Origin: a candidate division WOR-3 bacterium
Lineage (GTDB): Bacteria; Hydrothermota; UBA3073; JACQXS01; JAGMCI01
Assembly (NCBI GenBank): GCA_023129325.1
Contig: JAGMCI010000017.1
Span: forward strand, 13,252-77,251
Reading direction: 5' to 3'
DNA length: 64,000 bases
Position numbers and translations under genes: made by a program. Below are positions 21,148 through 50,209 of this stretch, in pieces; the stretch's first letter is position 1; each line of letters starts with the position of its first letter. The notes beneath the pieces were generated by a model. It saw only the letters and a list, made by a program, of their open reading frames with translations. It had not been told where the DNA came from and did no database searches.

Positions 21148-21168
21148 TTTAAATCATTATCCATCTTT

Positions 21169-21217
21169 TGGTTAATTGGTTAATTGGTTAATTAACCACT
21201 CACCATTTAACCAATCG
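21169..21217. repeat. (GGTTAAT)x3 plus CTCACCATTTAACCA module
   Basis: An inverted copy of this module lies at 25305..25361. Confidence 0.8.
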
Positions 21218-21270: not shown

Positions 21271-21283
21271 AACCTTTTAATTT

Positions 21284-21378
21284 CCCACTTCTAACTTCCC
21301 CACTTCTAACTTCCCACTTCTCCACTTCTAACTTCCCACTTCCCACTTCTCCACTTCCTACTTCTCCACTTCCCACTT
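21284..21378. repeat. ~13-unit degenerate heptamer array (CYNACTT, ACTTC family) directly after the tonB stop
   Basis: CCCACTT CTAACTT CCCCACTT CTAACTT CCCACTT CTCCACTT .... Confidence 0.9.
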
Positions 21379-23696: not shown

Positions 23697-24530
23697 TTAA
23701 AAAATGTCAAGTCTTTTTTTAAAAAAATTCCACTCTTTTGTTGAATACTTCTTTAGTAATTTATCTGTAAGCTCTCTTTCCTCATTTGTAAAAGTTCCTT
23801 CAATAATTTTTATCCCGCTTGCTTTAATTCCTTGCTTTAAAGCTATTGTGATTTCCTTGAGCTTGAAGTCACGACCTAAAATTTCTGAAAGACAGGATGT
23901 AGAGCGTCCGTCAACTGATGGATAGGATACGAAATTTGGGGGTGAGATTGGTATAGTTCCTTGTTGAAGGATTGTTCCATTAGCTCTCCTTTGGGCACTT
24001 CCGAGTATCTTTTTTCCATTGACTTGAAGTTCATATCTCATAAAAGAGCTAAAACAAACTGGAATCCGTTCATAGTGATTGGTAGTTCTCACTATCTGTG
24101 TCTGCCTGCTCCGCTCCGACAAGCGAAGCGGGACGGAGCCGGCGAGGCAGGCATCAATATTTAGAGTCTTTAGCCCAAGGGCAAAAATAAGGCTTACCTT
24201 TTTATAACTCTCAAACACAGAGCCTCCGAAAGTTGGATTTGTTTCATTAGTTACGAGTGAGTAAGTGAGGTCGCCATTGTGTACCACTGCTCTGCCTCCA
24301 GTAATTCTGCGTATAATAGGAAACCCATACTTCTTAAGATTCTTTATGTCCCGAATAGATTGCGAGTACCCTATCGTGATAGCAGGTGGCGAAAAAGTAT
24401 AAAATCTTAAAGTAGAATCGTATCCGGCAGTACACAAATTGTTAGATTGTGCTTTCCTGAATAATGCTTCATCTAATGCCATATTATAGAATCCATCTCT
24501 TGCCCAAGTATTTATTAGTCTAAGAATCAT
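23697..24530 (-). CDS. lipoate-protein ligase / octanoyltransferase family protein (BPL/LPL catalytic domain)
   Basis: RRITGGRAVVHNGDLTYSLV and GKKILGSAQRRANGTILQQGTI match my memory of LplA/LipM-type domains. The gene carries an in-frame GC-rich repeat (LAGSVPLRLSERSRQTQ). Confidence 0.65.
   Translation of the reverse strand: MILRLINTWARDGFYNMALDEALFRKAQSNNLCTAGYDSTLRFYTFSPPAITIGYSQSIRDIKNLKKYGFPIIRRITGGRAVVHNGDLTYSLVTNETNPTFGGSVFESYKKVSLIFALGLKTLNIDACLAGSVPLRLSERSRQTQIVRTTNHYERIPVCFSSFMRYELQVNGKKILGSAQRRANGTILQQGTIPISPPNFVSYPSVDGRSTSCLSEILGRDFKLKEITIALKQGIKASGIKIIEGTFTNEERELTDKLLKKYSTKEWNFFKKRLDIF
24102..24152. repeat. CCGCTCCGACAAGCGAAGCGGGACGG-family copy, in frame in the lipoate ligase-like gene
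   Basis: Core at 24111-24138 with CTGCC/GGCAG flanks. Read antisense it gives LAGSVPLRLSERSRQ. Confidence 0.85.
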
Positions 24531-25304: not shown

Positions 25305-25361
25305 GAACGGTGAGTGGTTAAATGGTGAGTAATTAACCAATTAACCAATTAACCATTTAAC
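25305..25361. repeat. (TAACCAAT) array plus GGTGAG module, inverted copy of 21169..21217
   Basis: GAACGGTGAGTGGTTAAATGGTGAGTAATTAACCAATTAACCAATTAACC. Confidence 0.8.
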
Positions 25362-28096: not shown

Positions 28097-28540
28097 ATGA
28101 TAATAATTTGTTTTTTTCTTCTATTGCAAGCACAACAGCCCGAGGGAGCTAAATATTATGTCTATTTGGGGGAGATAGGCGAGCTTCAGATAAAGGTTTC
28201 TATTTGGGGAGAGATTAAGTCTCCTGGACTTTATTCTATTCCTGAGGGGATGGATTTAGCTACATTTCTGACATTAGCTGGGGGCTTATTAAAGGGAGCA
28301 GATATGTCTGGGATTAAAGTGGTGAGGTCTTTTCCAGAAGCAAAAGTATTTAGTGTAAATCTCAGTAAATTTTTCAAGACAGGGAGGCGGGAAGACGTTC
28401 CTGTGTTGAATCCGGGAGATATGATATATATAAAAGGTAATTTTTATTCAAGGATTAAAGAATTTACTCATTTTTTAACGGAGACTACTTTTTTGATAGG
28501 GGCGTATTACGGAATATATCGGTTAATAAGAGGGGAGTGA
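28097..28540 (+). CDS. polysaccharide export protein with SLBB (Wza-like soluble ligand-binding beta-grasp) domain
   Basis: VSIWGEIKSPGLYSIPEGMDLATFLTLAGGL...LNPGDMIYI resembles SLBB domains. Start set to ATG 28097, 8 nt after a TTGACA-17-TATCAT promoter. Confidence 0.6.
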   Translation: MIIICFFLLLQAQQPEGAKYYVYLGEIGELQIKVSIWGEIKSPGLYSIPEGMDLATFLTLAGGLLKGADMSGIKVVRSFPEAKVFSVNLSKFFKTGRREDVPVLNPGDMIYIKGNFYSRIKEFTHFLTETTFLIGAYYGIYRLIRGE

Positions 28541-30745: not shown

Positions 30746-30806
30746 TAATACGCCCCTGCAAGGGCAGAATTTGTGTTTCCTGCCTCGCCTGCGAGTCAAG
30801 GCGGGT

Positions 30807-31862
30807 GTGTTTTTTGTAATACTTAGTATTTCTACACTCCCCGTGCGAGCAAGATGTGAATTTAAGTCTCAGTCGGAGTTGATTGATAGTCCAACAGCGC
30901 ATGTTTCTGATGATTGGTTTGCTCTTGGAATGACCTTTTCTATTACAACTAAAGATGACCCTCACTGGGCTGTTGGTAATGCCTATTTGAAAGTCCAGAT
31001 TCCTGGGAAATTATTCCTTGGATTGTCAATTTTTAATCTTAGAGAAGCCTTGGTAGCATTTGATGCTGGATGGAAGGTAAATAAGGAAACTCAAAATATG
31101 CCAGCTATTATGTTGGGATGTTTATACCTTTCTCCTTATCGCTGGATTTCTCCAGTTGGTCATGATAGTACTGTCGGCTGGGCAGATGACCAAACTTATG
31201 ATACGAAAAGGAATTCAGAACAATTTTCTGCTTTTGTTGTTGCTACAAAAGATTTTGGACCTTATGGACTTTATAATGTTGGAATAGGAAGGGGTTCGCT
31301 GGTTGGCTATGGACCAAGGTCTCATCTCTTTAATACTGATATGTTTATGAGAGACCATCATAACGACGCTGTAGGAATTATTTGGGGTGGCGAGGTAAAT
31401 ATTAGAAAAAATATATTTGGAGTGCTTGACTTTGATGGAAGGGATTTTAATGTTGGAATTAAGATTAAAGGTAAATGGTATCAAATAGGAATCGCCGCAG
31501 CTAAACTTGAACACCGATTAGGAGGTTCTCCAATACTTTATCCTCGTTTTGCAGCAGGGTTTATAATAAATTCACATATATTAAAAAAATTGCCTCCCAA
31601 AATTCCAAAAATTGGAGCTGTTGCCGGAGTAGTACGGGATAAAAATACCCTGCAACCGTTAGTTGCTAAACTCGTGTTTACCGAAACTACCCTTCTTCCA
31701 GTAGCCACTGACAGTAACGGAAAATATACTGTTTCTATTATGCCTGGAACTTACAGGGTGAGGGCTGTTGTTTCAGGATATTATTGGCTTGAGAAAAAAA
31801 TTTATGTCGCTCCTCAAATGACAACAATATGTAACTTTGAATTAACGCCAAAGCCAAAATGA
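30807..31862 (+). CDS. putative outer-membrane protein with C-terminal carboxypeptidase-regulatory-like domain
   Basis: Track ORF 30681..31862. The first ~40 codons are repeat DNA, so I propose the in-frame GTG at 30807 (FFVILSISTLPVRA signal-like). C-terminus GVVRDKNTLQPLVAKLVF...GKYTVSIMPGTYRVRAVVSGY. The start is uncertain. Confidence 0.45.
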   Translation: MFFVILSISTLPVRARCEFKSQSELIDSPTAHVSDDWFALGMTFSITTKDDPHWAVGNAYLKVQIPGKLFLGLSIFNLREALVAFDAGWKVNKETQNMPAIMLGCLYLSPYRWISPVGHDSTVGWADDQTYDTKRNSEQFSAFVVATKDFGPYGLYNVGIGRGSLVGYGPRSHLFNTDMFMRDHHNDAVGIIWGGEVNIRKNIFGVLDFDGRDFNVGIKIKGKWYQIGIAAAKLEHRLGGSPILYPRFAAGFIINSHILKKLPPKIPKIGAVAGVVRDKNTLQPLVAKLVFTETTLLPVATDSNGKYTVSIMPGTYRVRAVVSGYYWLEKKIYVAPQMTTICNFELTPKPK

Positions 31863-31911
31863 AAAATCAAAAATTAAAATGTAAAAATCAAAATCACAAA
31901 TTAAAAATTGA
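31863..31911. repeat. A-rich heptamer array (AAAATCA AAAATTA AAATGTA ...)
   Basis: AAAATTAAAATG[C/T]AAAAATCAAAAT recurs at 37868-37895. A related run lies at 44064-44097. Confidence 0.8.
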
Positions 31912-32053: not shown

Positions 32054-34732
32054 ATGACTTATAATTTTAAAGATATTGAGGCAAGACAACAAAAGTATTG
32101 GGACCATATTGGGCTCCCTGCTCCTCCTAAAGTTCCACACAAAAAATATTATATCTTAGAGATGTATCCTTATCCTTCAGGTGACCTTCATATGGGGCAT
32201 CTTAAAAATTATGTGATAGGAGATACATTAACAAGATATAAACTAATGTGTGGATATGATATACTTCATCCTATAGGCTGGGATGCCTTTGGTCTACCTG
32301 CAGAAGAGTGTGCGATTGAGCAAGGCGTGGACCCGGAAAAATGGACTCTCCATAATATTCAAGTTTCTCGCTCAACATTCCGCCTTATGGGTATGTTATA
32401 TGATTGGGATAGAGAGATTACTACTTGCCTTCCAGATTATTATAAATGGACACAATGGTTATTTCTAAAATTATATGAACATGGCTTGGTATATCGTAAA
32501 AAAGCGTTCCAAAATTGGTGCCCTCACTGTCAGACAGTGCTTGCAAATGAACAAGTTGAGGCTGGAAGATGCTGGAGATGCGAAACCCCAGTGAGGAGAA
32601 AAGAACTAAAACAATGGTTCTTTAAAATTACCCAGTATGCTGAAAGATTGTTGACAGATATAAATAAACTCAACGGCTGGCCTGAACGAGTTAAGACACT
32701 GCAAAAAAATTGGATTGGTAAATCTGAAGGCTTGGAAATAGATTTCTCTTTACCTGCCCCGCTCCGACAAGCGAAGCGGGACGGAGATGGCAAGAAGATA
32801 CCAATATTTACTACAAGACCTGATACAATTTATGGAGTAACATTTATAGCAATTGCTCCAGAAAACGAACTTGCAAAGAGCCTTGGTAGAAACTCAAATT
32901 CAAAAAAAGAAGTCTTAAAATACATTGAAAATTCACTAAAACGAACAGAGATTGAAAGAACTTCATCAACCCGAGTTAAAGATGGAGTGAATACAGGCAA
33001 ATATGTGATTAATCCATTATCAGGTAAAAAAGCCGAAATATGGATTGCTGATTATGTCCTACCCTCCTATGGAACTGGCGTTGTAATGGGTGTCCCTGCT
33101 CACGACCAGAGAGATTTTGAATTTGCAAAGAAATACAAGATACCAATTGAAGTTGTTATTCAACCTAAAGGAGTAGGGGCGCATAGCGGCTCGACTGAGG
33201 CTTCCGTTGAGTCAGCCGAAACGCTCGCGACTCGACTGAGGCTTCCGTTGAGTCAGCCGAAACGCTCGTCGAAGCCCGAAGTCAATACGCCCCTACAAAA
33301 TATAAAACAGGCTTATGCCGAACCAGGAGTGATGATAAATTCGGGTCAGTTTAACGGTCTGGATTCAGTCAAAGGAGTAGAAAAAATAATTAAATTTGTG
33401 ACCCAAAACGGAATTGGAAGACGAAAAGTAAATTATAGGTTAAGAGATTGGTTAATATCACGCCAAAGATATTGGGGAGCACCTATTCCAATGATTCATT
33501 GTAAAAAGTGTGGAGTTGTTCCTGTTCCCTTTCATAACCTTCCAGTATACCTTCCAAAACAGGGAATCGATTTCACTCCAAAGGGAAAGTCTCCTCTTTC
33601 TTCAGTCCCTGATTTTATCAACACTAAGTGCCCAAAGTGCGGAAACCCTGCAACCCGAGACCCCGATACTATGGATACCTTTGTGGACTCTGCTTGGTAT
33701 GAGATTAGATACTTAGACCCCAAAAATGAACAAGCTCTTGTCTCAAAAAAGGAAGCCGAAAAATGGCTCCCAGTTGATCAATATATTGGAGGAGTGGAAT
33801 ATGCAACTACCCATCTCCTTTATTTTCGGTTTATCACAAAGTTTCTCTATGATATTGGAGTCCTCCCAGTAGATGAGCCAGTTGAAAATCTCTTTAATCA
33901 GGGGTTGATAAAAGATGAAACCGGGCAAAAGATGTCGAAATCAAAAGGCAATGCTGTCCCAGTAGGCCCATTTCTTAAAGAATGGGGGGCAGATATAGCA
34001 AGACTTACCATTTTATTCCTGGGACCTCCTTCTAAAGATGGAATATGGTCAGTAAAGGGCATACAAGGAGTAAGTAGATTTCTAAATAGAGTATATAAGC
34101 TTGTAAATGAAAATGCTTCTGTAGGGGCGTATGGCGACTCGACTGAGGCTTCCGTTGAGTCAGCCGAAACGCTCGCGACTCGACTGAGGCTTCCGTTGAG
34201 TCAGCCGAAACGCTCGTCGAAGTCCGAAGTCAATATGCCCCTACAAGAGGAGGAAAATTTTAAAAATACACCACTTTATAGGAAGCTTAATCTTACAATA
34301 TCAAAAGTGGAAGAGGACCTCAACTCTTTTGGATATAATACTGCTATAGCATCGCTTATGGAATTTACAAATGAACTTTATAAAACTCAAGAAAGAGGTT
34401 CCATTTTTGGGTACTCTTTAGGAGTGCTAATAAAACTACTCGCCCCATTTGCTCCCCATCTGTCTGAAGAGCTATGGCATGAGCTCGCCCATACGGGTTC
34501 AGTATTTAAATCCTGCTGGCCTGGTTGGAAAGAGGTAGAGGCAAAAAAAGTCACATTAGTGATTGAAATTAATGGAAAGCCAAGAGCTACAGTTGAGATT
34601 CCTTATGATTTAGGAGAGGAAGAAGTGAAAAAAGTTTGCTTGCATAATACTCGTATAGAAGGAAGAATTAAAGGAAAAAATATTAAAAAAATTATATTTG
34701 TTCAAAACAAGCTTATTAATTTTGTAATGTAA
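32054..34732 (+). CDS. leuS: leucine--tRNA ligase
   Basis: HIGH motif PYPSGDLHMGHLKNY, KMSKS motif QKMSKSKGN, and TTRPDTIYGVTF at the editing-domain entry. The ORF is intact despite three in-frame repeat insertions. Confidence 0.95.
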   Translation: MTYNFKDIEARQQKYWDHIGLPAPPKVPHKKYYILEMYPYPSGDLHMGHLKNYVIGDTLTRYKLMCGYDILHPIGWDAFGLPAEECAIEQGVDPEKWTLHNIQVSRSTFRLMGMLYDWDREITTCLPDYYKWTQWLFLKLYEHGLVYRKKAFQNWCPHCQTVLANEQVEAGRCWRCETPVRRKELKQWFFKITQYAERLLTDINKLNGWPERVKTLQKNWIGKSEGLEIDFSLPAPLRQAKRDGDGKKIPIFTTRPDTIYGVTFIAIAPENELAKSLGRNSNSKKEVLKYIENSLKRTEIERTSSTRVKDGVNTGKYVINPLSGKKAEIWIADYVLPSYGTGVVMGVPAHDQRDFEFAKKYKIPIEVVIQPKGVGAHSGSTEASVESAETLATRLRLPLSQPKRSSKPEVNTPLQNIKQAYAEPGVMINSGQFNGLDSVKGVEKIIKFVTQNGIGRRKVNYRLRDWLISRQRYWGAPIPMIHCKKCGVVPVPFHNLPVYLPKQGIDFTPKGKSPLSSVPDFINTKCPKCGNPATRDPDTMDTFVDSAWYEIRYLDPKNEQALVSKKEAEKWLPVDQYIGGVEYATTHLLYFRFITKFLYDIGVLPVDEPVENLFNQGLIKDETGQKMSKSKGNAVPVGPFLKEWGADIARLTILFLGPPSKDGIWSVKGIQGVSRFLNRVYKLVNENASVGAYGDSTEASVESAETLATRLRLPLSQPKRSSKSEVNMPLQEEENFKNTPLYRKLNLTISKVEEDLNSFGYNTAIASLMEFTNELYKTQERGSIFGYSLGVLIKLLAPFAPHLSEELWHELAHTGSVFKSCWPGWKEVEAKKVTLVIEINGKPRATVEIPYDLGEEEVKKVCLHNTRIEGRIKGKNIKKIIFVQNKLINFVM
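32751..32794. repeat. same family, in frame in leuS
   Basis: TACCTGCCCCGCTCCGACAAGCGAAGCGGGACGGAG encodes LPAPLRQAKRDGDGK. Confidence 0.85.
33173..33296 (+). repeat. 124-nt GTAGGGGCG...CGCCCCTAC element in frame in leuS (copy 1)
   Basis: Inverted termini GTAGGGGCGCAT / AATACGCCCCTAC. Internal 41-nt unit (CTCGACTGAGGCTTCCGTTGAGTCAGCCGAAACGCTCG plus 3 nt) present twice. Confidence 0.9.
34121..34244 (+). repeat. 124-nt GTAGGGGCG...GCCCCTAC element in frame in leuS (copy 2)
   Basis: By my alignment it differs from copy 1 at 5 of 124 positions. Same orientation and same reading frame. Confidence 0.9.
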
Positions 34733-34771: not shown

Positions 34772-35851
34772 ATGGAGTTTGTGGTAAATAAGATTGAAGA
34801 TTTAGATAAAAATTTACCCTCCAATGTGAAAAGAGTTAGAATAAACCTTCCTAATCTTGACTCAGCTGATATTGTTAATTTTGTTTCTAAGTACTTATCT
34901 TGTCTGTCTGCCCGACGTCCTGCAGGCGGGCAGGCGGGCAGGCGGGCAGGCGGGCGAATTAAAGCAAATATATCTGAACAGTCCCGACTTCAGTCGGGAT
35001 TAAGAGAGGACAGGACAATTCAGGAAGTGTGGTTAAAAAGTGATAAGTTTCCTATACTTTTAAAAAATGGGTATTTAATATTCTTCTCCAAAGGCGGGTC
35101 CCTGTCCGACAGATGGCTCGCCTCGCTGAAGCTTTGGCGAAGCGGGCAGGCGGGCGCCTCTGGCGGAAAAAACCACTCCAATGAGGTTAAGACTGGTGGG
35201 AAAAGAGGATTAGATATTTTTATAAGTAGTTTGATGCTTGGCATTTCTTTTCCTATTTTGCTTGTGAGTTCTATTCTTATAAAACTTACTTCTAAGGGGC
35301 CAGTCTTGTTCCGTCAATCCCGGATTGGCGTTAATGGAAAGTTATTTAATTTTTATAAATTTAGGACGATGCATTGTTCTAATCCATTAACCGATAGAGA
35401 TATACATCGCAATTATATAAAAAAATCTATACTTGGTAGCAATTCAGGACAATCTGTCTCTCAAACTCTTGATAAAACCAGAGCGGCAAACAAGAGAGTT
35501 TACAAATTGACCAATGACCCCAGAATAACCCCCGTTGGGAGATGGCTGAGAAAACTATCAATAGATGAACTTCCACAATTGATAAATGTCTTAAAAGGTG
35601 ATATGAGTCTCATAGGACCTCGGCCTCCAATACCTTACGAAGTTAAATTATACAGTGATTGGCACTATGTTAGGCTAATTGCCCGTCCTGGCATAACCGG
35701 GCTCTGGCAAGTTATGGGGAGAAGTCTTATTCCCTTTAATCAGATGGTATTACTTGACTTTTACTATGCAGTAAATCAATCATTTTGGTTAGACTTGAGA
35801 ATATTTTTACGCACTATCCCAATGGTCTTGTCATTGAAAGGAGCGTATTAA
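34772..35851 (+). CDS. bacterial sugar transferase (polyprenyl-phosphate sugar-1-phosphate transferase family) with repeat-rich N-terminal extension
   Basis: KRGLDIFISSLMLGISFPILLVSSILIKLTSKGPVLFRQSRIG...FYKFRTM...DPRITPVGRWLRKLSIDELPQLINVLKGDMSLIGPRPP. Confidence 0.8.
   Translation: MEFVVNKIEDLDKNLPSNVKRVRINLPNLDSADIVNFVSKYLSCLSARRPAGGQAGRRAGGRIKANISEQSRLQSGLREDRTIQEVWLKSDKFPILLKNGYLIFFSKGGSLSDRWLASLKLWRSGQAGASGGKNHSNEVKTGGKRGLDIFISSLMLGISFPILLVSSILIKLTSKGPVLFRQSRIGVNGKLFNFYKFRTMHCSNPLTDRDIHRNYIKKSILGSNSGQSVSQTLDKTRAANKRVYKLTNDPRITPVGRWLRKLSIDELPQLINVLKGDMSLIGPRPPIPYEVKLYSDWHYVRLIARPGITGLWQVMGRSLIPFNQMVLLDFYYAVNQSFWLDLRIFLRTIPMVLSLKGAY
34908..34954. repeat. CTGCCCGACGTCCTGCAGGCGGG element followed by (CAGGCGGG)x4 perfect octamer tandem, in frame in the sugar transferase
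   Basis: Four perfect octamer units at 34923-34954. It encodes SARRPAGGQAGRRAGGR. Confidence 0.85.
34982..34999. repeat. 7-bp-stem hairpin in frame in the sugar transferase
   Basis: TCCCGAC-TTCA-GTCGGGA. Confidence 0.6.
35117..35156. repeat. GCCCGCTTCGCC / CAGCGAGGCGAG-family element in frame in the sugar transferase
   Basis: CTCGCCTCGCTGAAGCTTTGGCGAAGCGGGCAGGCGGGCG encodes ASLKLWRSGQAGA. Confidence 0.8.
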
Positions 35852-36523
35852 ATGGCAGTGAGGATTGGAAAATCAGTAAAAATATATCCGGGAGTGAAAT
35901 TAGGGAACGGTTGTGTAATTTATGATTTTGTTGTTCTTGGTTTTCCACCACGAAATAAAATGGTAGGGGCGTATAGCGATACGTCCCTACAGATTGGGGA
36001 AAATGCTATTATACGACCATTTACCACTATATATGCGGGTAACCGTATAGGTGACAACTTCCAGAGCGGACAAGGAACAAGTATTAGAGAGGATAATATA
36101 ATTGGCAATAATGTGAGCGTAGGTAGCAATACTACACTTGAATTCGGAAACCGTATTGGTTCAGGGACAAGAATTCACTCTTTGTGCTTCCTTGAGCTTG
36201 TTAATGTAGGGGAAAATGTTTTTATTGGTCCAGGTACAGTTTTTCTTGATGACCCTCATCCTATGAATTGTCCCAGATATCGTGAATGTCTGGGAGGTGC
36301 AAAAGTTAAGAAACTTGTTAAGATTGGTGGAGGATGTATTATCCTTCCAGGAATTACTATTGGAGAAGCTGCTCTTATAGGAGCTGGAACTTGTGTGACT
36401 AAAGATGTTCCAAAAGGAGTAGTTGTTGTTGGACATCCAGGCAAGTTTGTTAAGAAGATTGAAGAACTTAAGTGCTATCCAGGGTTTTTTAAACGTCCTT
36501 ACCTTTGGAAGCCATATATATAA
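35852..36523 (+). CDS. left-handed beta-helix (hexapeptide repeat) sugar N-acetyltransferase
   Basis: Imperfect hexapeptide repeats run through most of the protein (IGDNFQSGQGTSIREDNIIGNNVSVGSNTTLE...). The ATG directly follows the upstream stop. Confidence 0.75.
   Translation: MAVRIGKSVKIYPGVKLGNGCVIYDFVVLGFPPRNKMVGAYSDTSLQIGENAIIRPFTTIYAGNRIGDNFQSGQGTSIREDNIIGNNVSVGSNTTLEFGNRIGSGTRIHSLCFLELVNVGENVFIGPGTVFLDDPHPMNCPRYRECLGGAKVKKLVKIGGGCIILPGITIGEAALIGAGTCVTKDVPKGVVVVGHPGKFVKKIEELKCYPGFFKRPYLWKPYI
35963..35990. repeat. minimal GTAGGGGC element (termini only) in frame in the acetyltransferase gene
   Basis: GTAGGGGCGTAT-AGCG-ATACGTCCCTAC encodes VGAYSDTSLQ. Confidence 0.8.
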
Positions 36524-36556: not shown

Positions 36557-36622
36557 TACCTGCCCCGCTCCGACAAGCGAAGCGGGACGGAGACGGCAGG
36601 CAGGTATTTTTTTCTTTTTTTT
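36557..36622 (+). terminator. Rho-independent terminator built from a CCGCTCCGACAAGCGAAGCGGGACGG-family repeat copy
   Basis: Outer stem TACCTGCC / GGCAGGTA encloses the repeat core and is followed by TTTTTTTCTTTTTTTT. It lies 34 nt after the acetyltransferase stop. Confidence 0.7.
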
Positions 36623-37763: not shown

Positions 37764-37765
37764 AT

Positions 37766-37855
37766 GGAGAGGTGTCCGAGTTGGTTTAAGGAGCACGATT
37801 GGAAATCGTGTGGCCTCAGAAATGGGGCTCGCGGGTTCGAATCCCGCCCTCTCCG
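37766..37855 (+). tRNA. tRNA-Ser (anticodon GGA), type II with long variable arm
   Basis: Hand-folded. Acceptor GGAGAGG/CCTCTCC, D-arm TCC...GGA, anticodon stem CACGA/TCGTG with loop TTGGAAA, long variable arm TGGCCTCAGAAATGGGGCTC, T-arm GCGGG-TTCGAAT-CCCGC, discriminator G. No encoded CCA. Confidence 0.9.
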
Positions 37856-37863
37856 TTTTTAAT

Positions 37864-37996
37864 ATCAAAAATTAAAATGCAAAAATCAAAATTATTGTAG
37901 GCACGATTTCAAATCGCACAGGCAATTTATGATTAAGATTAAAAAAGTTTTGCTTTTTAATATGTGATTTTGATATTTGATTTTTGATATTTAATA
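37864..37996. repeat. inverted ATCAAAA / TTTTGAT heptamer arrays flanking the TGTAGGCAC hairpin
   Basis: Left array at 37864-37891 and right array at 37948-37996. Confidence 0.75.
37896..37924. repeat. TGTAGGCAC-family hairpin (short)
   Basis: TGTAGGCACGATTTCAAATCGCACAGGCA, flanked by inverted ATCAAAA / TTTTGAT arrays. Confidence 0.8.
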
Positions 37997-38006
37997 TTCT
38001 TTAATT

Positions 38007-39428
38007 ATGCTCTCAACTATAAAGGCTCAACTTAAGCCCTTTATGCCATTGTTACTTAAAGCAAAGGAACCATGGCTTGTTGGGGGTGCAATTAGAGATG
38101 CTATCATTACTTCCCACTTCTCACTTCCTACTTCCCACTTCAAAGATTTTGATTTTGCCATCAAAGGTTCAGGAATAGAATTTGCACGCTGGTTTGCACA
38201 TAAGATTTGTGCCGGAGACACATCCGCCTCCGGCATAAAGGGAAGCTTTGTTTTACTTGATTCTGAAAATGACGAAGCAAGAGTCGTGGTAAAAATCAGA
38301 AATCAGAAGTCAGAAGTCAGAAATCTTACTTTTGATTTTAATGGAATGAAGTCTATTGAGGAAGACCTTTCCCGGCGCGATTTTAGACTAAATGCCATGG
38401 CAGCAAAATTACCTGAATTTAAAATACTTGACCCATTTAAGGGCATAGAGGATATAAAGAAAAAGAGACTCAGAATGGTTTCTGAAAAATGCTTTAAAGA
38501 AGATGCACTGAGAATACTTAGAGGATTTAGATTAGAAGCAACACTTGGCTTTAAAATAACTCCTAAAACTCTTGAAGTCATGAGACTTCATAAAAATTTA
38601 CTCTTCAAAATTGCACCTGAAAGAATAAGAGAAGAGCTTTTCCTTCTTCTTAAAGCTAAGAATTGTTACAGAACCTTACGACATATGGCCAGACTTGAAA
38701 TACTTGATGTCATAATTCCGGAGACCACTCCTATGAGAGAGGTACCATCCCGATTTATCGGGAGTGGCAACTTGCTTGACCATTCAATGTTAACTGTTAA
38801 AAAGGTTGAGGACTTAGAAGCATCTGAGGACTTTAGCCCTTGGTTTAGTGAATATCTTAGAAAAAAATTACCTGTCCTAAAGTTAGCTGCTTTATTGCAC
38901 GATATTGGTAAACCATATTGCTATACTAAGAATGAATCAGGAAAAGTGCACTTTTATGGTCATGAAAAAAAGGGGATAGAACTTCTCGTAGGAATTCGTG
39001 ACCGTCTTAGATTGAGCCATAAGGAATTTAAGACCCTTCAGTTGCTTATTCATTATCATATGCGACCTCATCTTTTAGCCAGAGAGCGTTATCCAACTGA
39101 CAAAGCAATATGGAAATTTATAAGAGATGGCGGTGAAGAAGCGCAAGGCATTCTTTTGCTCGCTTATGCGGATGCCTTGGCATCTGGAAGAAGAGGAAGG
39201 AAAGGGCTTCTTAAATTACTTGATAGAGGGATAAAGATGCAAGCAGAATTCAATCGTCCTAAATTCAAACCTTTATTAACAGGTAATGATTTGATCTCTC
39301 TTGGACTCAAGCCAGGTCCCAAGTTTAAGGAAATTCTACAGATAGTAGGAGAGATGCAAGTGAGTGGCGAACTCCATACTACCAATCAAGCCCTACAATT
39401 TGTTAAGAAAAACTTCCTCGCCTCGTAA
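38007..39428 (+). CDS. cca: CCA-adding enzyme / poly(A) polymerase family nucleotidyltransferase with HD domain
   Basis: LVGGAIRD...DFDFAI (GGxxRD / DxD head domain), RRDFRLNAMA, and HD region LHDIGKP...YGHEKKG. Confidence 0.8.
   Translation: MLSTIKAQLKPFMPLLLKAKEPWLVGGAIRDAIITSHFSLPTSHFKDFDFAIKGSGIEFARWFAHKICAGDTSASGIKGSFVLLDSENDEARVVVKIRNQKSEVRNLTFDFNGMKSIEEDLSRRDFRLNAMAAKLPEFKILDPFKGIEDIKKKRLRMVSEKCFKEDALRILRGFRLEATLGFKITPKTLEVMRLHKNLLFKIAPERIREELFLLLKAKNCYRTLRHMARLEILDVIIPETTPMREVPSRFIGSGNLLDHSMLTVKKVEDLEASEDFSPWFSEYLRKKLPVLKLAALLHDIGKPYCYTKNESGKVHFYGHEKKGIELLVGIRDRLRLSHKEFKTLQLLIHYHMRPHLLARERYPTDKAIWKFIRDGGEEAQGILLLAYADALASGRRGRKGLLKLLDRGIKMQAEFNRPKFKPLLTGNDLISLGLKPGPKFKEILQIVGEMQVSGELHTTNQALQFVKKNFLAS
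38110..38141 (+). repeat. ACTTC-family heptamers in frame in cca between GGxxRD and DxD
   Basis: TTCCCACTTCTCACTTCCTACTTCCCACTTC encodes TSHFSLPTSHF. Confidence 0.85.
38293..38324 (+). repeat. (AATCAGA/AGTCAGA)x4 heptamers in frame in cca
   Basis: It encodes IRNQKSEVRN. Confidence 0.85.
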
Positions 39429-42485: not shown

Positions 42486-43343
42486 TTAAACTGAATTTTC
42501 TCTGTTTACCTCAATGAACTTTATTATTTCCTTAATTATCCAATCTGGGGTTGAAGTTCCGGCTGTTACACCGATACTTGATTTTGTTTTGAACCACTGG
42601 GGTTTAAGTTCAGCCTTTGTTTCTATATGATAAGTTTCACAACCTTGGTCTCGACTTAGTTCAGCGAGTCGCGTTGTATTGGCTGAATTATGACCTCCAA
42701 CGACAATCATTAAATCTACCTTTTTAGCAAGTTCAATTGTATGTTGTTGTCGTAAACTTACGACCTCACAAATTGTATTATAGATATGTAATTCTTTAGT
42801 GGTTTGTAGGAGATGAGATACCACTTCTGCGAATGTAGATGAGGCTAAAGTTGTTTGTGCGATAACGCCTATTTTATCAAACTTTCCACTTTCCACTTTC
42901 CACTTCCCACTTCCTGTTGGGTCTATGACTTGAGCCCGATTCTGAGTATGTCCGACTATGCTTTGAACTTCAGGGTGGTCAGGCTTACCGACCACAAAAG
43001 CTTGGTATTCGGCATCACAGAGAGCCTTAGCATAATTTTGTGCCTTTTTTACAAATGGACAGGTTGCGTCTATTATTTTAAACCCGAGTTTCAGGGCTTC
43101 ATCAATTACTGAATCTGGTGCACCATGGGACCTTATAATTAGTTTACCTATTTTAACCTTAGATAGTGATTTAATAGGACATAGTCCTAAAGTCTCAAGT
43201 TGCTTAACTACTTGTGGGTTGTGGATTACAGGGCCGTAAGAATAGACAGGCAATTTAGATTCTGTAAGAGTTTTATTGGCTATATCTATTGACCTCTTTA
43301 CTCCGAAACAAAAACCAGAATTTGGTATCTCAAATACTTTCAT
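42486..43343 (-). CDS. ispH: 4-hydroxy-3-methylbut-2-enyl diphosphate reductase
   Basis: GFCFGVKRSI, ATCPFVKK, AQTT and GGHNSANTTRLAE are IspH/LytB hallmarks including the Fe-S cysteines. Confidence 0.9.
   Translation of the reverse strand: MKVFEIPNSGFCFGVKRSIDIANKTLTESKLPVYSYGPVIHNPQVVKQLETLGLCPIKSLSKVKIGKLIIRSHGAPDSVIDEALKLGFKIIDATCPFVKKAQNYAKALCDAEYQAFVVGKPDHPEVQSIVGHTQNRAQVIDPTGSGKWKVESGKFDKIGVIAQTTLASSTFAEVVSHLLQTTKELHIYNTICEVVSLRQQHTIELAKKVDLMIVVGGHNSANTTRLAELSRDQGCETYHIETKAELKPQWFKTKSSIGVTAGTSTPDWIIKEIIKFIEVNRENSV
42882..42914. repeat. ACTTC-family heptamers in frame in ispH
   Basis: CCACTTT CCACTTT CCACTTC CCACTTC encodes GSGKWKVESGK. Confidence 0.85.
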
Positions 43344-44068
43344 TAGTTACCCACCTTCCTGCTGTCTCCGTCCCGCTTCGCTTGTCGGAGCAGGGGGCAA
43401 GGCAGGTTTGTTACTGACAGGTTTTTGATTCTACGCTCTACTTCTTTAGAAATTATGGCACGAGCTTCTCTGGGTAACTTCGCTTGCCTGCCTGCAGACA
43501 GGTCTCTGAGAAGAGAGTCATAAATAACAGGTTTCCCGAATCGAACACATACTTTTTCTTTCCGAATAAATTGTTTAATGAGTGGAGTATTAGTCCCTTT
43601 TACAAGAGTTGGTACCACAGGCACCTCGCATCTTAAAGCCAACCAGGCTACACCGGGATGAAATTCTAAAAAATGTCCTGATAGACTGCGTGTGCCCTCA
43701 GGGAAAAACATAATAGCTAAACCATTTTTTAATAATTTCTCTGTGTGCTTGAGCGCCGTTTTGTTCAGTCCTTTTGTGTTAACTTCATAAGCATTAAAAG
43801 CCTTGATTAACCAAGTATAAAATTTATTGATCACAAATAGTTCTTGTTTAGTAAAAAGATAACACTCCCTGAACCACACAGCTGCCCCAACCAATGGGGG
43901 GTCAAAGTTTGATAAATGGTTAGGTGCGATAATGACACCTCCTTTTTTAGGAATGTTTTCCCATCCCTCAATTTTAAAGCCAAATAATAATTTCCAGGTC
44001 CAATAAATTATCCTTATTGCTATCCTGTATCTTAACTTCATCACACCAAATTTAGAATTAAATATCAA
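43343..44068 (-). CDS. plsC: 1-acyl-sn-glycerol-3-phosphate acyltransferase
   Basis: HX4D motif APNHLSNFDPP and FPEGTRS. The start could instead be the internal MKLRYRI. The C-terminal ~25 aa are repeat-encoded. Confidence 0.8.
   Translation of the reverse strand: MIFNSKFGVMKLRYRIAIRIIYWTWKLLFGFKIEGWENIPKKGGVIIAPNHLSNFDPPLVGAAVWFRECYLFTKQELFVINKFYTWLIKAFNAYEVNTKGLNKTALKHTEKLLKNGLAIMFFPEGTRSLSGHFLEFHPGVAWLALRCEVPVVPTLVKGTNTPLIKQFIRKEKVCVRFGKPVIYDSLLRDLSAGRQAKLPREARAIISKEVERRIKNLSVTNLPCPLLRQAKRDGDSRKVGN
43358..43406. repeat. same family, forming the C-terminus of plsC
   Basis: The reverse complement of the core lies at 43366-43391. It encodes PCPLLRQAKRDGDSRKVGN*. Confidence 0.85.
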
Positions 44069-44224
44069 AAATCAAAATTACATATTAAAATGCAAAAATT
44101 ACAACAACAGACTGAAGACCGAAGACATAAGACTGACGACAAAAAAGTCTACGGTCTCTGGTCTTAAGTCTATAGCCTTTCTTTTTAATTTTTGATTTGT
44201 CATTTTGATATTTGATTTTTAATG
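44064..44224. repeat. nested inverted heptamer arrays between cmk and plsC
   Basis: The outer pair is ATCAAAA (44064-97) / TTTTGAT (44183-224; it encodes the cmk C-terminus). The inner pair is AGACNNA x4 (44109-40) / NNNGTCT (44147-71), separated by AAAAAA. Confidence 0.8.
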
Positions 44225-44880
44225 GTTGATATTTTTTTTATCACTTTTTCCACTTGTTCTTCAATTGATAAGTTTGTTGTATTAATAATTACTGCTCCCA
44301 AAGGAACCTTTAAAGGTGAGAGTTGTCTTAATTTGTCTTGAATATCTCTTGATTTTAAATCACGAGATATTTCTTCAAACTTTGCAGAGACTCTTTTTTC
44401 CCTTAATTCTTTTAACCTTCTTGCTGTTCTTATGTGATGGTCAGCATCCATATAAATTTTAACTTCAGCTTCTGGGAAAACCACTGTTCCAATATCCCTA
44501 CCTTCACAGACAATCCCGCACTTATGCATAAGTGCGGGACCAGATGCCATACGTCTCTGTAACTTAACCATATTTTCGCGTACTCCTTTATATTTGGAAC
44601 AAAGAGAAGCCAATTTACCTATCTCCTCTGTTCTAATGGCTTGGGTCACATCTTCATCATTTAAGAATATTTTTTCATCCCTAAAACTAATATCCAGTTC
44701 AGAAGAAAGGGCTGTAACTTTTTTCCTATTAGTTGGCTCTATTTTATTTTGTTTAACTGAAAGAGCAACGGCCCGATAAGTTGCGCCAGTATCAATATAT
44801 TTATAGCCTAATCTTTTAGCTACTAATTTAGCAGTAGTTGACTTTCCTGAGCCAGCTGTTCCATCAATTGTAACAATCAT
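44200..44880 (-). CDS. cmk: cytidylate kinase
   Basis: IVTIDGTAGSGKSTTAK P-loop and GRDIGTVVFPEA. ATGA overlap with the thiL stop. Confidence 0.9.
   Translation of the reverse strand: MIVTIDGTAGSGKSTTAKLVAKRLGYKYIDTGATYRAVALSVKQNKIEPTNRKKVTALSSELDISFRDEKIFLNDEDVTQAIRTEEIGKLASLCSKYKGVRENMVKLQRRMASGPALMHKCGIVCEGRDIGTVVFPEAEVKIYMDADHHIRTARRLKELREKRVSAKFEEISRDLKSRDIQDKLRQLSPLKVPLGAVIINTTNLSIEEQVEKVIKKISTIKNQISK
44524..44549. repeat. TCCCGCAC hairpin inside cmk, in frame
   Basis: TCCCGCACTTATGCATAAGTGCGGGA encodes GPALMHKCGI just before the GRDIGT motif. Confidence 0.8.
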
Positions 44881-45836
44881 ATTTTAAAATGGTCAAATCC
44901 CTTCACAGGAATCTCGTTTCCCTCCTCATCTATAATTTTTACTTCCCACTTCCCACTTCCCACTCCGTGGTGAAGGTCGTGGCGAACCACTTCCCACTTT
45001 TCTATTATCTCTCCTACTTCTGTAAATTCAACCCTTTTTTTAGCCTGCGTAGTATAAATTTTGGGAATTGTAAAAAGTAATTCAAATTCCTCACCTCCAT
45101 TTAAGGCACAAGAGATTGGCGAAAGAGAAAATTTACTTGTTATCTTTCTTGTTTCATTATTTATAGGGAGATTATTTCTCCATATTTTTGCCCCTACTTT
45201 TGATTCATCAAGAATATGAGAAAGGTCAATTGTGAAGCCGTCGGAAATATCTATCATTGATGTAACATAATTACTGAGCTCTTTTCCTTCCTTAATCCTG
45301 GGTAATGGATTAAGATGCTGTCTTATCAAAGGACTTTTAATTCCATTTTGAAGTGCTAAAAGTCCAGCAAAAGAGTTTCCAAGCTTGCCTGTAACACAAA
45401 TTAAATCCCCAATTTTAGCACCCGACCTTTTTATTATTTTCTTTACTTCACCAATAACACAGATAGTTATTGAAATAATTTTTGATTTTGTAAGTTCGCC
45501 ACCAATTATTTCCATATTAAACAATTTTGCTATTTCTCTTACACCACGATAAAAATCTTTTATAAACTTAAGGTCGCCAGTTGGGAGGCCAACTGAAATA
45601 AGAGCATATCTTGGTATCCCACCGCAAGCAGCAATGTCAGACATTGAAGCCGAAAGGCTCTTGTAGCCAACATCATAAGGTGTGAAATAAGCAGTATCAA
45701 AATGAACTTTCTCTATAAAAGAATCAATTGTCACAAGTGGTATAAGTCCTGGAGAAATATTAAAAGCTTCAGCATCGTCACCAATTCTTGGGAATACTTT
45801 TCTTATTTCTTTTATGAGTTCAAATTCACTTGTCAT
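44877..45836 (-). CDS. thiL: thiamine-monophosphate kinase
   Basis: AIR-synthase-related fold motifs: GDDAEAF..., DSFIEKVHF, MSDIAACGG and DISDGF. Confidence 0.8.
   Translation of the reverse strand: MTSEFELIKEIRKVFPRIGDDAEAFNISPGLIPLVTIDSFIEKVHFDTAYFTPYDVGYKSLSASMSDIAACGGIPRYALISVGLPTGDLKFIKDFYRGVREIAKLFNMEIIGGELTKSKIISITICVIGEVKKIIKRSGAKIGDLICVTGKLGNSFAGLLALQNGIKSPLIRQHLNPLPRIKEGKELSNYVTSMIDISDGFTIDLSHILDESKVGAKIWRNNLPINNETRKITSKFSLSPISCALNGGEEFELLFTIPKIYTTQAKKRVEFTEVGEIIEKWEVVRHDLHHGVGSGKWEVKIIDEEGNEIPVKGFDHFKI
44941..44959. repeat. (ACTTCCC)x2.7 in frame in thiL
   Basis: It encodes SGKWEVK. It abuts the 31-nt CCACTCCGTGG element. Confidence 0.8.
44960..44990. repeat. CCACTCCGTGGTGAAGGTCGTGGYGAACCAC element in frame in thiL
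   Basis: Read antisense it gives VVRHDLHHGVG. It is adjacent to an ACTTCCC heptamer run. Confidence 0.85.
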
Positions 45837-47079: not shown

Positions 47080-48416
47080 TATACCTCCTGCCGTCCGTTC
47101 TTATCAACTCGACTTGTTGATTTAGAACAGCGAGCATCCCGCACCGTATGGTGCGGGAATTCATTCTTAGTTGTATCTATTAGTAAAGATTTTACTCCAC
47201 AAGGTTTGCCATTATTGATGTAAATACGCGGGACCCTTGGACATATATTGGTAAGTATTTCATAACTAATAGTTCCTGCAAGTTTAGCAACTTCATCGCA
47301 ACTTATACCATTGCCAATAAGAGTAACTTTGTCACCTATTTTTACATCAGGAATATGAGTTACATCAACCATAGTAAGGTCCATACACACAGCCCCAACA
47401 ACTTTAGCCCGTTTACTCTTTATAACAACAATTCCCTTATTTGAAAGGCTCCGTGGATAGCCATCTCCATAACCAACAGATAAGGTGGCAATTTTGCTTG
47501 ATTCATTAGTAATGTAGGTTCTGCCATAAGAAATTGGAGTCCCCGGAGGAACTAACTTTAACTGGCAAACCCGGGTATAAAGATTTAAAATTGGTTTTAC
47601 CTCAATTGAGCTTGTGTGCACTGATGGATATAAGCCATAGAGCAAAAGTCCTGGTCTTATCATATTAAAATAAGAATCGGGAAATCCAAGTATAGCCGCA
47701 GAGTTCGCAGTATGAACCAAAGGCACTTGAATTCCCTTATTTTGTAATTCCTGAATTAAAGCATTAAATTTTTCAAGTTGATTAAGTGTAAAATTTTTAT
47801 CTCCCCCGCCTGCAGGATGTCGGGCAGGTCTTTCTGTTTCAGCAAAATGAGTAAACAGACCGTCTAACTTAAGATTCTTTAATTCAAGCACCTTAAGGAT
47901 AAAATCTATGGCTTCAGTGTAAGGGGTCCCAGTCCTGCCCATTCCAGTATCAACCTCAATATTGATTTTGATAATTTTACCCGCTTCTTTGGCACGCTTA
48001 TTAAGTTCAATAGCAAAAGGATAATATGTAACTGTTGGTATAAAGTCATTAGATACCTGCCCGCTCGCCTCGCTCTCGCTCCGGCGAAGCGGGCTGCTCT
48101 GCTTTGGCAGGCGGGTAAGTTTTGGCACATCGCTTACTAAAATGGGTGAAAGAATTACTATTGGTAAACCTATTTCGGCTAACTCACAAGCCTCATCAAT
48201 TGAGGCTACTCCCAACATATCAATTCCTTCCTCTTTTAATGTTTTTGATATTTCTCGTGCCCCATGTCCATAAGCGGCAGCTTTAACAGCTGCTAAAATC
48301 CTCACCTTACTATTTGATTTGTTAATAGTTTGATAGCTTGAAAGCCTTTCTTTTAGAGCTTTTACATTAGACTTTAACTTATCTAAGTCCACTACTGCCC
48401 AAGTTCTGCCATCCAT
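47079..48416 (-). CDS. alr: alanine racemase
   Basis: PLP-lysine motif AAVKAAAYGHG, HFA and YGDGYPR. Two in-frame repeat insertions, plus a C-terminal extension read through the downstream leader element. Confidence 0.85.
   Translation of the reverse strand: MDGRTWAVVDLDKLKSNVKALKERLSSYQTINKSNSKVRILAAVKAAAYGHGAREISKTLKEEGIDMLGVASIDEACELAEIGLPIVILSPILVSDVPKLTRLPKQSSPLRRSESEASGQVSNDFIPTVTYYPFAIELNKRAKEAGKIIKINIEVDTGMGRTGTPYTEAIDFILKVLELKNLKLDGLFTHFAETERPARHPAGGGDKNFTLNQLEKFNALIQELQNKGIQVPLVHTANSAAILGFPDSYFNMIRPGLLLYGLYPSVHTSSIEVKPILNLYTRVCQLKLVPPGTPISYGRTYITNESSKIATLSVGYGDGYPRSLSNKGIVVIKSKRAKVVGAVCMDLTMVDVTHIPDVKIGDKVTLIGNGISCDEVAKLAGTISYEILTNICPRVPRIYINNGKPCGVKSLLIDTTKNEFPHHTVRDARCSKSTSRVDKNGRQEV
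47080..47158 (-). repeat. two-hairpin leader element plus SD, copy C, upstream of the DUF1844 gene (also read as the alr C-terminus)
   Basis: It shares ACCTCCTGCCGTCCGTTCTT and GCGAGCATCCCGCAC with copy B. The loops differ. Confidence 0.85.
47805..47827. repeat. reverse-complement copy of CTGCCCGACRTCCTGCAGGCGGG in frame in alr
   Basis: One mismatch to 34908-34930. It encodes RPARHPAGGG. Confidence 0.8.
48056..48115. repeat. same family, in frame in alr
   Basis: CCTGCCCGCTCGCCTCGCTCTCGCTCCGGCGAAGCGGGCTG...GGCAGGCGGG encodes LPKQSSPLRRSESEASGQV. Confidence 0.8.
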
Positions 48417-49516: not shown

Positions 49517-50209
49517 ATGGATTGGAGTCTTTCATCCGTTAGCCCGCTTCGCCGAAGCTTCAGCGAGGCGAGCCGGCGGAAAGCATTTAAAATGCAGGAA
49601 GAACTTAGTCAGAAATTAATTTTGGAACCTGTAACCTACAATTTTAAATCTATTTGTGGAACAGATGTTGCTTTCACTACCAATAATAGTGGGATAGCTT
49701 ATGCTGTTTGTTGTTTATTTTCATTTCCTGAGTTAAAGTTAATTGAAGAGTCAAGGGCAACTATGCCTATAAATTATCCTTATATACCAGGGCTTTTTGC
49801 CTTTAGAGAGGGTCCTATTTTACTTAAAGTAATTAAGAAGCTCCACGTTGAACCTGATATTATTTTGTTTGATGGGCACGGTATTGCTCATCCAAGGGGA
49901 TTTGGGTTAGCATCACATCTTGGTTATTTACTCAGTAAACCAACAATTGGCTGTGCTAAGACAAGATTGGTTGGAGAATATAAAGAGCCTGGAGCGAAAC
50001 AAGGTTCCTCGTCACTGCTTACTTTAAACAAAAAAATTATTGGAGCGGCGGTAAGGACAAAAGATGGGATAAAACCTGTCTTTATCTCGCCTGGTAATTT
50101 AATCGACCTTGAAACATCTATAAAAATAATTCTCTCTGTTTCTCAAGGTTATAGGATTCCTGAGCCCTTAAGACTTGCACATATAAAAAGTCGTAAAATT
50201 GCTTTGTAA
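49517..50209 (+). CDS. nfi: endonuclease V (deoxyinosine 3-prime endonuclease)
   Basis: GTDVAF, YIPGLFAFREGP and DGHGIAHPRGFGLASHLG. The N-terminal SPLRRSFSEASRRK is repeat-encoded. Confidence 0.85.
   Translation: MDWSLSSVSPLRRSFSEASRRKAFKMQEELSQKLILEPVTYNFKSICGTDVAFTTNNSGIAYAVCCLFSFPELKLIEESRATMPINYPYIPGLFAFREGPILLKVIKKLHVEPDIILFDGHGIAHPRGFGLASHLGYLLSKPTIGCAKTRLVGEYKEPGAKQGSSSLLTLNKKIIGAAVRTKDGIKPVFISPGNLIDLETSIKIILSVSQGYRIPEPLRLAHIKSRKIAL
49542..49579. repeat. same family, in the nfi N-terminus
   Basis: GCCCGCTTCGCCGAAGCTTCAGCGAGGCGAGCCGGCGG encodes SPLRRSFSEASRR. Confidence 0.8.

Follow-up and report, generated by a model that had tools for sequence, protein, structure and literature searches.

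Frame-preserving heptamer arrays near the catalytic motifs of a class II tRNA nucleotidyltransferase gene in a candidate division WOR-3 bacterium

Background

How does a tandem repeat with a unit of seven nucleotides come to lie in frame within the gene of a tRNA-maturation enzyme, only a few residues from its catalytic carboxylates? The question is raised by a class II tRNA nucleotidyltransferase gene (positions 38007..39428, plus strand, 473 aa) in a stretch of 64,000 nucleotides from a candidate division WOR-3 bacterium (GenBank assembly GCA_023129325.1, contig JAGMCI010000017.1, positions 13,252 to 77,251). We refer to this whole stretch as the window and number all positions from its first letter. 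An earlier note, prepared from the letters alone, had drawn attention to two heptamer arrays in the part of the gene that encodes the head domain, one of them between the GGxxRD and DxD motifs, and had proposed that a repeat expansion is tolerated next to the metal-binding carboxylates of a CCA-adding enzyme.

An excess of heptanucleotide repeats occurs in many prokaryotic genomes, with a bias toward intergenic DNA, and slippage, which has been connected with a polymerase contact of 7 nt, is their proposed cause (Mrazek et al. 2007, as related in PMC4679880 and PMC4692102). Here, we describe a comparative analysis of the two arrays, of the homologous sites in related enzymes, and of the other repeats of the window. 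We present evidence that both arrays are probably slipped-strand heptamer expansions, filtered by the reading frame and by permissive loops, that have left near-neutral surface extensions on a working enzyme.

Results and Discussion

Array 1 lengthens the RD-to-DxD spacer by three heptamers

Array 1 (38109..38141, plus strand) consists of the units ACTTCCC, ACTTCTC, ACTTCCT, and ACTTCCC followed by a partial ACTTC, and is scored by Tandem Repeats Finder (TRF) as a period-7 repeat of 4.7 copies with 84% matches (score 52). It is read in frame as TSHFSLPTSHF (T35-F45) inside LVGGAIRDAII-TSHFSLPTSHF-KDFDFAI, ends two residues before D47, and represents a net gain of 21 nt (7 aa) relative to the genes of relatives. 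Sequence reading and TRF agree with the earlier note in placing an ACTTC-family array in frame between GGxxRD and DxD.

Conservation and spacer statistics were drawn from an alignment of the 120 best homologues, the window protein counted among them. Of these proteins, 104 (87%) have 8 aa between RD and DxD and 11 have 9-11 aa; the spacer is 15 aa in the window protein alone, and four other homologues have 19, 19, 27, and 36 aa. All eight of the closest relatives (56-64% identical) read RD-AILGLPxK-DFD, an 8-aa spacer, and in HMMER alignments the solved CCA-adding enzyme 6ibp and the Escherichia coli poly(A) polymerase 3aqm, which likewise have a spacer of 8 aa, each show exactly 7 gap columns at array 1. 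The window protein therefore exceeds the usual length by 7 aa (21 nt, three heptamers), just as the earlier note had calculated from a usual spacer of about 8 residues. The supposition that the spacer lies outside the normal family range holds insofar as the length is unusual, but it is not unique, and the site must be regarded as permissive because four other members of the family carry longer inserts there.

The nucleotidyltransferase-fold signature that Holm and Sander are said to have described in 1995, hG[GS]x9-13Dh[DE]h, places 9-13 residues at this point, and the 19 residues between G27 and D47 of the window protein, compared with 12 in relatives, lie outside that range. Membership in the class II family rests, as far as the sequence goes, on profile matches and catalytic residues and not on the G[GS]-to-Asp spacing.

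The codons of the Gly-Leu-Pro found at the homologous position are GGACTTCCT (GGA CTT CCT) in orthologues P0005, P0006, and P0007, GGACTTCCG (GGA CTT CCG) in P0009, and GGA CTG CCT in P0002, and the middle of array 1 still reads TCA CTT CCT (S-L-P). Since the codons of relatives contain it, the heptamer ACTTCCT pre-existed at this site. P0013 carries heptamer arrays of its own here, with the units AAAAATC/AAATATC.

Head-domain models with and without the insert were compared by setting the AlphaFold model of the window protein against that of the insert-free P0002. The helix after GG spans residues 27-38 versus 31-38, the loop ahead of the DxD strand 39-46 versus 39-43, and the DxD strand 47-53 versus 44-50. 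Array 1 is modelled to extend this helix at its end by approximately one turn and the loop ahead of the DxD strand by three residues, and the predicted local distance difference test score (pLDDT) is approximately 90 over the insert and 89-93 across both arrays. The earlier claim of tolerance next to the carboxylates is upheld in that the gene is intact and its conserved residues are kept (see below); the adjacency, however, is one of sequence only, with the insert falling at a helix end and loop in the model.

The gene appears intact and functional

The predicted product contains the head, RNA-binding, HD, and tail domains of a class II tRNA nucleotidyltransferase. Pfam matches were 69.9 bits for the head domain PF01743 (cut-off 23) and 52.7 bits for PF12627 (cut-off 22); PF01966 also exceeded its cut-off, and the tail domain PF13735 reached 26.3 bits, slightly under its cut-off of 27. 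The first half of motif A, G26-G27-A-I-R30-D31 (38082..38099, plus strand, as are the motifs that follow), has an invariant R30, with G26, G27, and D31 at least 90% conserved among the 120 homologues. In the second half, D47-F-D49 (38145..38153), D49 is invariant and D47 at least 90% conserved, and D110 (38334..38336), the probable third catalytic carboxylate, occupies an invariant column four residues after array 2. These three residues align with D58, D60, and D112 of the Aquifex aeolicus CC-adding enzyme, which are its catalytic carboxylates (PMC3925840). Motif B is present as R123-R124-D125-F126 (38373..38384), of which R124, D125, and F126 are invariant, and motif D (EDxxR) as E165-D166-A-L-R169, in which D166 is at least 90% conserved and R169 invariant. 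Altogether, the window protein keeps 21 of 21 invariant and 37 of 37 nearly invariant columns, including H298-D299, and its AlphaFold2 model has a mean pLDDT of 94.7 and a predicted template-modelling score (pTM) of 0.91.

The sole tRNA gene of the window, a tRNA-Ser(GGA) gene identified with ARAGORN (37765..37856, plus strand), adjoins the nucleotidyltransferase gene; it encodes no 3' CCA and is followed by TTT, so that an activity building the CC or CCA end is needed. Given the conserved columns, the high confidence of the model, and this tRNA gene, we judge the nucleotidyltransferase gene to be intact and apparently functional. The earlier note had asked whether a second cca/pcnB paralogue might make this copy dispensable, and within the window a family profile search of the six-frame translation found none.

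Array 2 and the hairpin site across orthologues

Array 2 (38293..38325, plus strand) comprises AAATCAG twice, AAGTCAG twice, and a partial AAATC (AAATCAG x4.7 with 92% matches by TRF), and encodes K/IRNQKSEVRN. TRF and translation match the earlier description of a second array, (ARTCAGA)x4 encoding IRNQKSEVRN. In the model this stretch is the tip of a β-hairpin, the strands of which (E90-98 and E104-114) compare with residues 77-82 and 86-93 in insert-free P0002. The model thus shows array 2 as an extension of this hairpin, which comes ahead of D110, the probable third catalytic Asp.

The segment from V93 to D110, which holds the hairpin, was compared among the orthologues with DNA in hand. 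Most close orthologues bear a heptamer array at the hairpin, and the units differ between them. Arrays are lacking in P0002 (segment of 8 aa), P0003 (13 aa), and P0010 and P0013 (11 aa each). A single array is found in P0004 (AAAACCG x3; 15 aa), in the window gene (P0001; AAATCAG / AAGTCAG; 16 aa), and in P0005 (AAAATGC x4), P0006 (AAACCGC x4), and P0009 (CAAAGTT x4), each with a segment of 17 aa, and P0007 has two (AAGTCAC x3 and ACTCACG x4; 30 aa). The segment therefore measures 15-17 aa with one array and 30 aa with two, in increments of approximately 7 residues.

In a neighbour-joining tree P0004-P0009 cluster together (72% bootstrap), separate from the window protein with P0002 and P0003 (47%). 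The sisters P0006 and P0009 have hairpin arrays of equal length, the units of which differ at three of seven positions. The hairpin arrays may represent either an old array that was kept while its unit turned over, or several independent origins; in either form, a long-lived or recurrent heptamer array across the clade is the more unusual point of this case. We tentatively suggest, as a possibility that falls somewhat short of an even chance, that slippage of heptamers persistently supplies essential proteins of this WOR-3-like clade with 7-residue insertions, the hairpin microsatellite being held across orthologues 58-64% identical to the window protein while its unit turns over by concerted evolution and period and frame are kept. 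If this is true, non-triplet microsatellites would offer a measurable route by which loops next to an active site evolve.

The nucleotidyltransferase gene of P0007 contains three separate heptamer arrays (1685-1715, 1727-1758, and 2244-2277 of locus L008), two of them at the hairpin and one further downstream. In P0085 (locus L132, gene 1001-2527), a distant homologue from Omnitrophica, the two head-domain sites that hold arrays 1 and 2 in the window gene contain palindromic inserts rich in G+C, GGCCGCAGACC...GGTCTGCGGCC and CGCCAGAAATC...GATTTCTGGCG. The array of P0013 at the first site and the palindromes of P0085 at both indicate that the two loops are permissive.

A third lineage-specific insert lies between the two arrays (38205..38234, plus strand). 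It is a G+C-rich segment of 30 nt, GCCGGAG ACACATCCG CCTCCGGC, with a hairpin-like inverted repeat (GCCGGAG...CTCCGGC), and encodes ICAGDTSASG. This insert is not found in 116 of the 120 homologues, and the span from D49 to G79 is 29 aa in the window protein compared with 19 aa in those 116. It forms the lowest-confidence block of the AlphaFold model, with a pLDDT of 72. Directly after the insert comes the strand whose A. aeolicus counterpart stacks on the acceptor end of the tRNA.

Heptamer repeats in the window and beyond

The whole window was scanned for matches and mismatches at every period from 4 to 15, with ten dinucleotide-preserving shuffles as the control. In the window, period 7 accounted for 15 arrays, period 8 for three, and period 15 for two; periods 4-6 and 9-14 gave none, and the ten shuffles yielded no array at all. 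TRF distinguished 29 separate period-7 arrays in the 64 kb. Nineteen of these fall in the approximately 7.1 kb outside long open reading frames (ORFs) and ten in the approximately 56.9 kb of ORFs, a non-coding bias of about 15-fold that is as expected if most coding arrays are purged. Because a tandem heptamer runs through all three frames, only stop-free units can survive in genes. ACTTCCC/ACTTTCC contains no stop triplet on either strand, and the unit is present in cca in the sense orientation and in ispH and thiL in the antisense orientation. The two cca arrays are local cases of a genome-wide heptamer-repeat habit and are not peculiar to this gene.

The exact 21-mer (ACTTCCC)3 was found at at least 120 loci, the matches listed including cyanobacteria, Bacteroidota, Gemmatimonadota, Planctomycetota, and others; by our own estimate, chance alone would yield approximately 0.3 exact occurrences of a 21-mer when both strands of 596 Gb are counted.

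The heptanucleotide simple sequence repeats (SSRs) known from prokaryotes (Mrazek et al. 2007; the cyanobacterial short tandemly repeated repetitive sequences, STRR; GGGAATC in Xanthomonas and Nostoc; TAACTGA in Beggiatoaceae) form, according to PMC4692102 and PMC4679880, many short arrays, sometimes in inverted pairs, and in this they resemble the arrays of the window. The window differs in having many units side by side instead of one dominant unit, and in having several arrays inside conserved housekeeping enzymes, with frame-preserving three-unit gains near catalytic residues. Lin and Kussell 2012 (PMC3315296) concluded that slippage-derived coding indels survive mainly where protein structure tolerates them, as appears to be the case here, although that study deals with units of 1-3 nt and no heptamers, whereas the arrays of the window have 7-nt units. 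Frame-preserving three-unit gains in conserved enzymes, and recurrence at one hairpin across orthologues, are not described in the heptanucleotide-repeat and coding-repeat studies that were compared (PMC4679880, PMC4692102, PMC3315296).

Other arrays of the window were recorded as well. Those of the ACTTTCC/ACTTCCC type within ispH and thiL, at 42881-42914 and 44941-44964, are read antisense as GSGKWKVESGKF and GVGSGKWEV. The longest array of the window (21282-21380, 99 nt) lies between two minus-strand ORFs and has approximately 13.6 heptamer units of ACTTC type. Three further heptamer arrays (12507-12558, 17774-17809, and 20822-20893), one in each of three large minus-strand ORFs, fall within the opening 50 or so codons and encode hydrophobic, signal-peptide-like stretches such as KFSIFNFQFSIFLLLTTYCLLPTA, a translation that depends on the true start codons. 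In two of these three ORFs MRNKL stands just upstream of the array-encoded stretch, once at the start and once some 20 codons in, where it may mark the true start. Among octamers, the arrays at 21168-21193 (TTGGTTAA x3.2) and 25331-25361 (AATTAACC x3.9) represent one unit in opposite orientations, and GCAGGCGG x4.2 at 34922-34955 is read as AGGQAGRRAGG inside a Bac_transf ORF.

Origin of the arrays

The explanation that we favour begins with slippage of 7-nt units, a process that would be very active in this genome and would have generated both arrays. Array 1 would have been seeded by the ACTTCCT that the ancestral codons for Gly-Leu-Pro (GGA CTT CCT) contained. Growth by a net three units (21 nt) would preserve the frame, the unit being stop-free on both strands, and selection would discard out-of-frame and disruptive variants. 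Subsequent point substitutions would then leave the units imperfect, and further slippage would be damped. Slippage as the mechanism, the neutrality of its products, and the retention of activity are what we infer from these comparisons.

Several observations weigh against this explanation. No relative of more than 64% identity is present in the databases searched, so that copy-number variation, the direct signature of slippage, is not observable, and the contigs that carry the window protein, as found by exact-sequence look-up (among them DAOWLA010000007.1 of assembly GCA_030643605.1), all encode an identical sequence. The edges of array 1 do not fit a pure duplication of GGACTTCCT, as the GG is lost and the last partial unit replaces a Phe/Val codon, and extra substitutions must therefore be assumed. 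The arrays in ispH and thiL show no clean gain of 7 aa relative to distant solved homologues; the ispH array is accompanied by a length difference of only 0-2 aa from distant solved IspH proteins, and the thiL array falls outside the region aligned to its distant solved homologue. Finally, ACTTCC-type arrays are present at four places in the window (21282-21380, 38109, 42881, and 44941), and preformed arrays could be copied between sites.

This last point leads to an alternative in which array 1 belongs to a dispersed repeat family and entered the gene as a preformed ACTTCCC-type copy, through recombination, gene conversion, or some mobile process. The four loci in 64 kb all share the plus-strand orientation, the (ACTTCCC)3 21-mer is present in many phyla, and other small elements of the window, such as the 126-nt elements of leuS, are clearly dispersed copies that landed in frame in genes. 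We nevertheless consider copying unlikely, for the ACTTCCT seed pre-exists at the homologous codons of relatives, neither terminal repeats nor a target-site duplication flank array 1, and the units at the second site vary among orthologues in a manner that local growth and turnover fit better than a shared mobile unit. It appears quite improbable that the inserts are adaptive, fixed by positive selection because extra loop residues (two His near DxD) or a longer hairpin alter the handling of metal, nucleotide, or tRNA. Both arrays are close in sequence to carboxylates, array 1 ending two residues before D47 and array 2 four before D110, and at the second site arrays persist in an orthologue clade that shares only 58-64% identity with the window protein. 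The peptides that they encode are, however, wholly different between orthologues, insert 1 is absent from the closest homologues, similar arrays occur in unrelated genes and mainly in non-coding DNA, and the model puts the inserts at the far ends of the helix and the hairpin.

Non-triplet tandem repeats in ORFs are the classic substrate of phase variation (PMC3315296 and PMC2651432), and the gain or loss of one unit would shift the frame and switch the gene off or on. Such a contingency switch is very improbable in a housekeeping tRNA-maturation enzyme that adjoins a tRNA gene without CCA. Whereas a contingency locus is recognized by a long perfect tract in a dispensable, usually surface, gene and by frameshifted alleles in the population, the two cca arrays are short tracts with mismatched positions (84% and 92% matches); like arrays are present in ispH and thiL, and no variant alleles are on record. 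We attach equally little credence to the idea that the gene is a decaying or redundant paralogue in which insertions accumulate. Three lineage-specific insertions in the head domain might suggest decay, and a further member of the family would be expected in the genome were the enzyme a CC-adder. The ORF is intact, however, with every invariant residue kept and a high-confidence model, and the orthologues are single, conserved, and likewise array-bearing. Moreover, an A-adding partner would be complementary rather than redundant (PMC3925840), and the essential leuS gene has even larger inserts.

If slippage within permissive loops is the correct explanation, the case shows a non-triplet microsatellite entering an essential enzyme, where only three-unit gains, stop-free units, and permissive loops would survive. 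Such loops would accept arrays even where only one to four residues separate them, in sequence, from catalytic carboxylates, and the two head-domain loops of class II nucleotidyltransferases would be natural insertion-tolerant sites, useful for engineering. The lineage represented by this metagenome-assembled genome seems unusually rich in small in-frame insertions, comprising both heptamer arrays and G+C-rich palindromes.

CC-adding or CCA-adding activity

The assignment of the protein to the class II tRNA nucleotidyltransferases stands on Pfam evidence, but the further claim of the earlier note, that it is a CCA-adding enzyme, is unproven. The best solved relative by sequence is the CC-adding enzyme from A. 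aeolicus (AaS; 3wfo, E 8e-45, residues 23-469), and the same enzyme (3wfr) is the best fold match in Foldseek, with a template-modelling (TM) score of approximately 0.75. AaS and the window protein have the same domain order of head, neck, HD-containing body, and tail, their three catalytic Asp align, and both have a short loop between the third carboxylate and motif B. They differ in that they are only about 27% identical, the RD-to-DxD spacer is 11 aa in AaS and 15 aa in the window protein, and AaS is without repeat-derived segments. A hallmark of CC-adding enzymes is that the flexible loop joining the third-carboxylate strand to motif B is short or deleted (Neuenfeldt 2008, as cited in PMC3925840 and PMC2910056), and loop length is not sufficient to determine CC-adding specificity (PMC3925840). 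Counted in alignment columns, the segment D110..D120 measures 9 aa in the window protein, and the range over all 120 homologues is 9-11 aa; the loop before motif B, counted by hand from alignments, is 15 aa in AaS and approximately 27 aa in the CCA-adding enzyme 6ibp. Closeness to AaS in sequence and fold, together with the short loop, makes the label "CCA-adding" uncertain, and by sequence and model the window enzyme looks CC-adding rather than CCA-adding. Its best NCBIfam match is an HD-containing actinobacterial CCA model, TIGR02692, at 161.6 bits, far under the cut-off of 438.8. Were it a CC-adder, an A-adding partner would be expected elsewhere in the genome, complementing rather than replacing it. 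The understanding of CCA addition itself is unchanged by the arrays.

A HMMER alignment to 6ibp hinted that array 2 might be a regrown flexible loop of a CC-adder. In the Thermotoga maritima enzyme the flexible loop (residues 107-115) comes after the third carboxylate, D99, and D110 aligns with D112 of AaS; the flexible-loop position of the window protein is therefore D110..D120. Array 2 precedes D110 and the segment D110..D120 is short, and the idea was rejected.

Other repeated elements of the window

The leuS gene (ORF 32054..34732) contains two in-frame G+C-rich elements of 126 nt (42 codons) at 33173-33298 and 34121-34246, which are 96% identical to each other. The elements have inverted-repeat ends, GTAGGGGCGTAT...ATACGCCCCTAC, and each includes an internal 41-nt tandem duplication; the alignment of the leuS product to Thermus thermophilus leucyl-tRNA synthetase (LeuRS; 1h3n) breaks exactly at residues 374-414 and 689-735. 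Rickettsia palindromic elements, which Ogata et al. reportedly described in 2000 (Science 290:347), are said to be short repeated DNA inserted in frame in essential protein genes and tolerated in surface loops. The leuS inserts resemble these elements, which are dispersed, palindromic, mobile, and approximately 100-150 nt long; the two cca arrays differ from them in consisting of heptamers in tandem, most likely formed by growth at the site itself.

The terminal motif GTAGGGGCGYAT occurs eight times in the window, with 0.15 occurrences expected, including copies at 28496-28507 and 30748-30759. A minimal 28-nt back-to-back palindrome of this motif (35963-35990) lies inside a hexapeptide-transferase ORF, where it is read as VGAYSDTSLQ.

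An intergenic element just 5' of the cca gene (37858..37998, no strand assigned) has arms that are inverted A/T-rich heptamer arrays of TCAAAAA and TTTTGAT type, recognized by TRF and as inverted repeats I4 and I7. Like elements, with inverted A/T-rich heptamer arms (ATATCAAAAATCAAAATG... and ...CATTTTGATTTTTGATAT), are found at 44040-44245 and 31856-31909; a 32-nt arm is 94% identical between 31863-31894 and 37861-37892, and the core of the element at 44040-44245 contains GAAGACC-type repeats. An RNA-structure role was considered for the inverted arms of the upstream element and set aside, the predicted RNA fold being weakly better than that of shuffles (z -1.8). Small mobile elements and regulatory hairpins are both possible identities for these intergenic elements.

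A second family of G+C-rich palindromes (CTGCCCCGCTCCGACAAGCGAAGCGGGACGGAG...) is represented at 24095-24159, 32751-32800, 36557-36606, and 43349-43411. One copy is intergenic and, with a T-run following it, terminator-like; the other three lie in ORFs, namely leuS, an acyltransferase ORF, and ORF 23697-24530. Islands of GCGAAGCGGGC type, similar to this family, are located at 35083-35183, 48045-48121, and 49533-49586.

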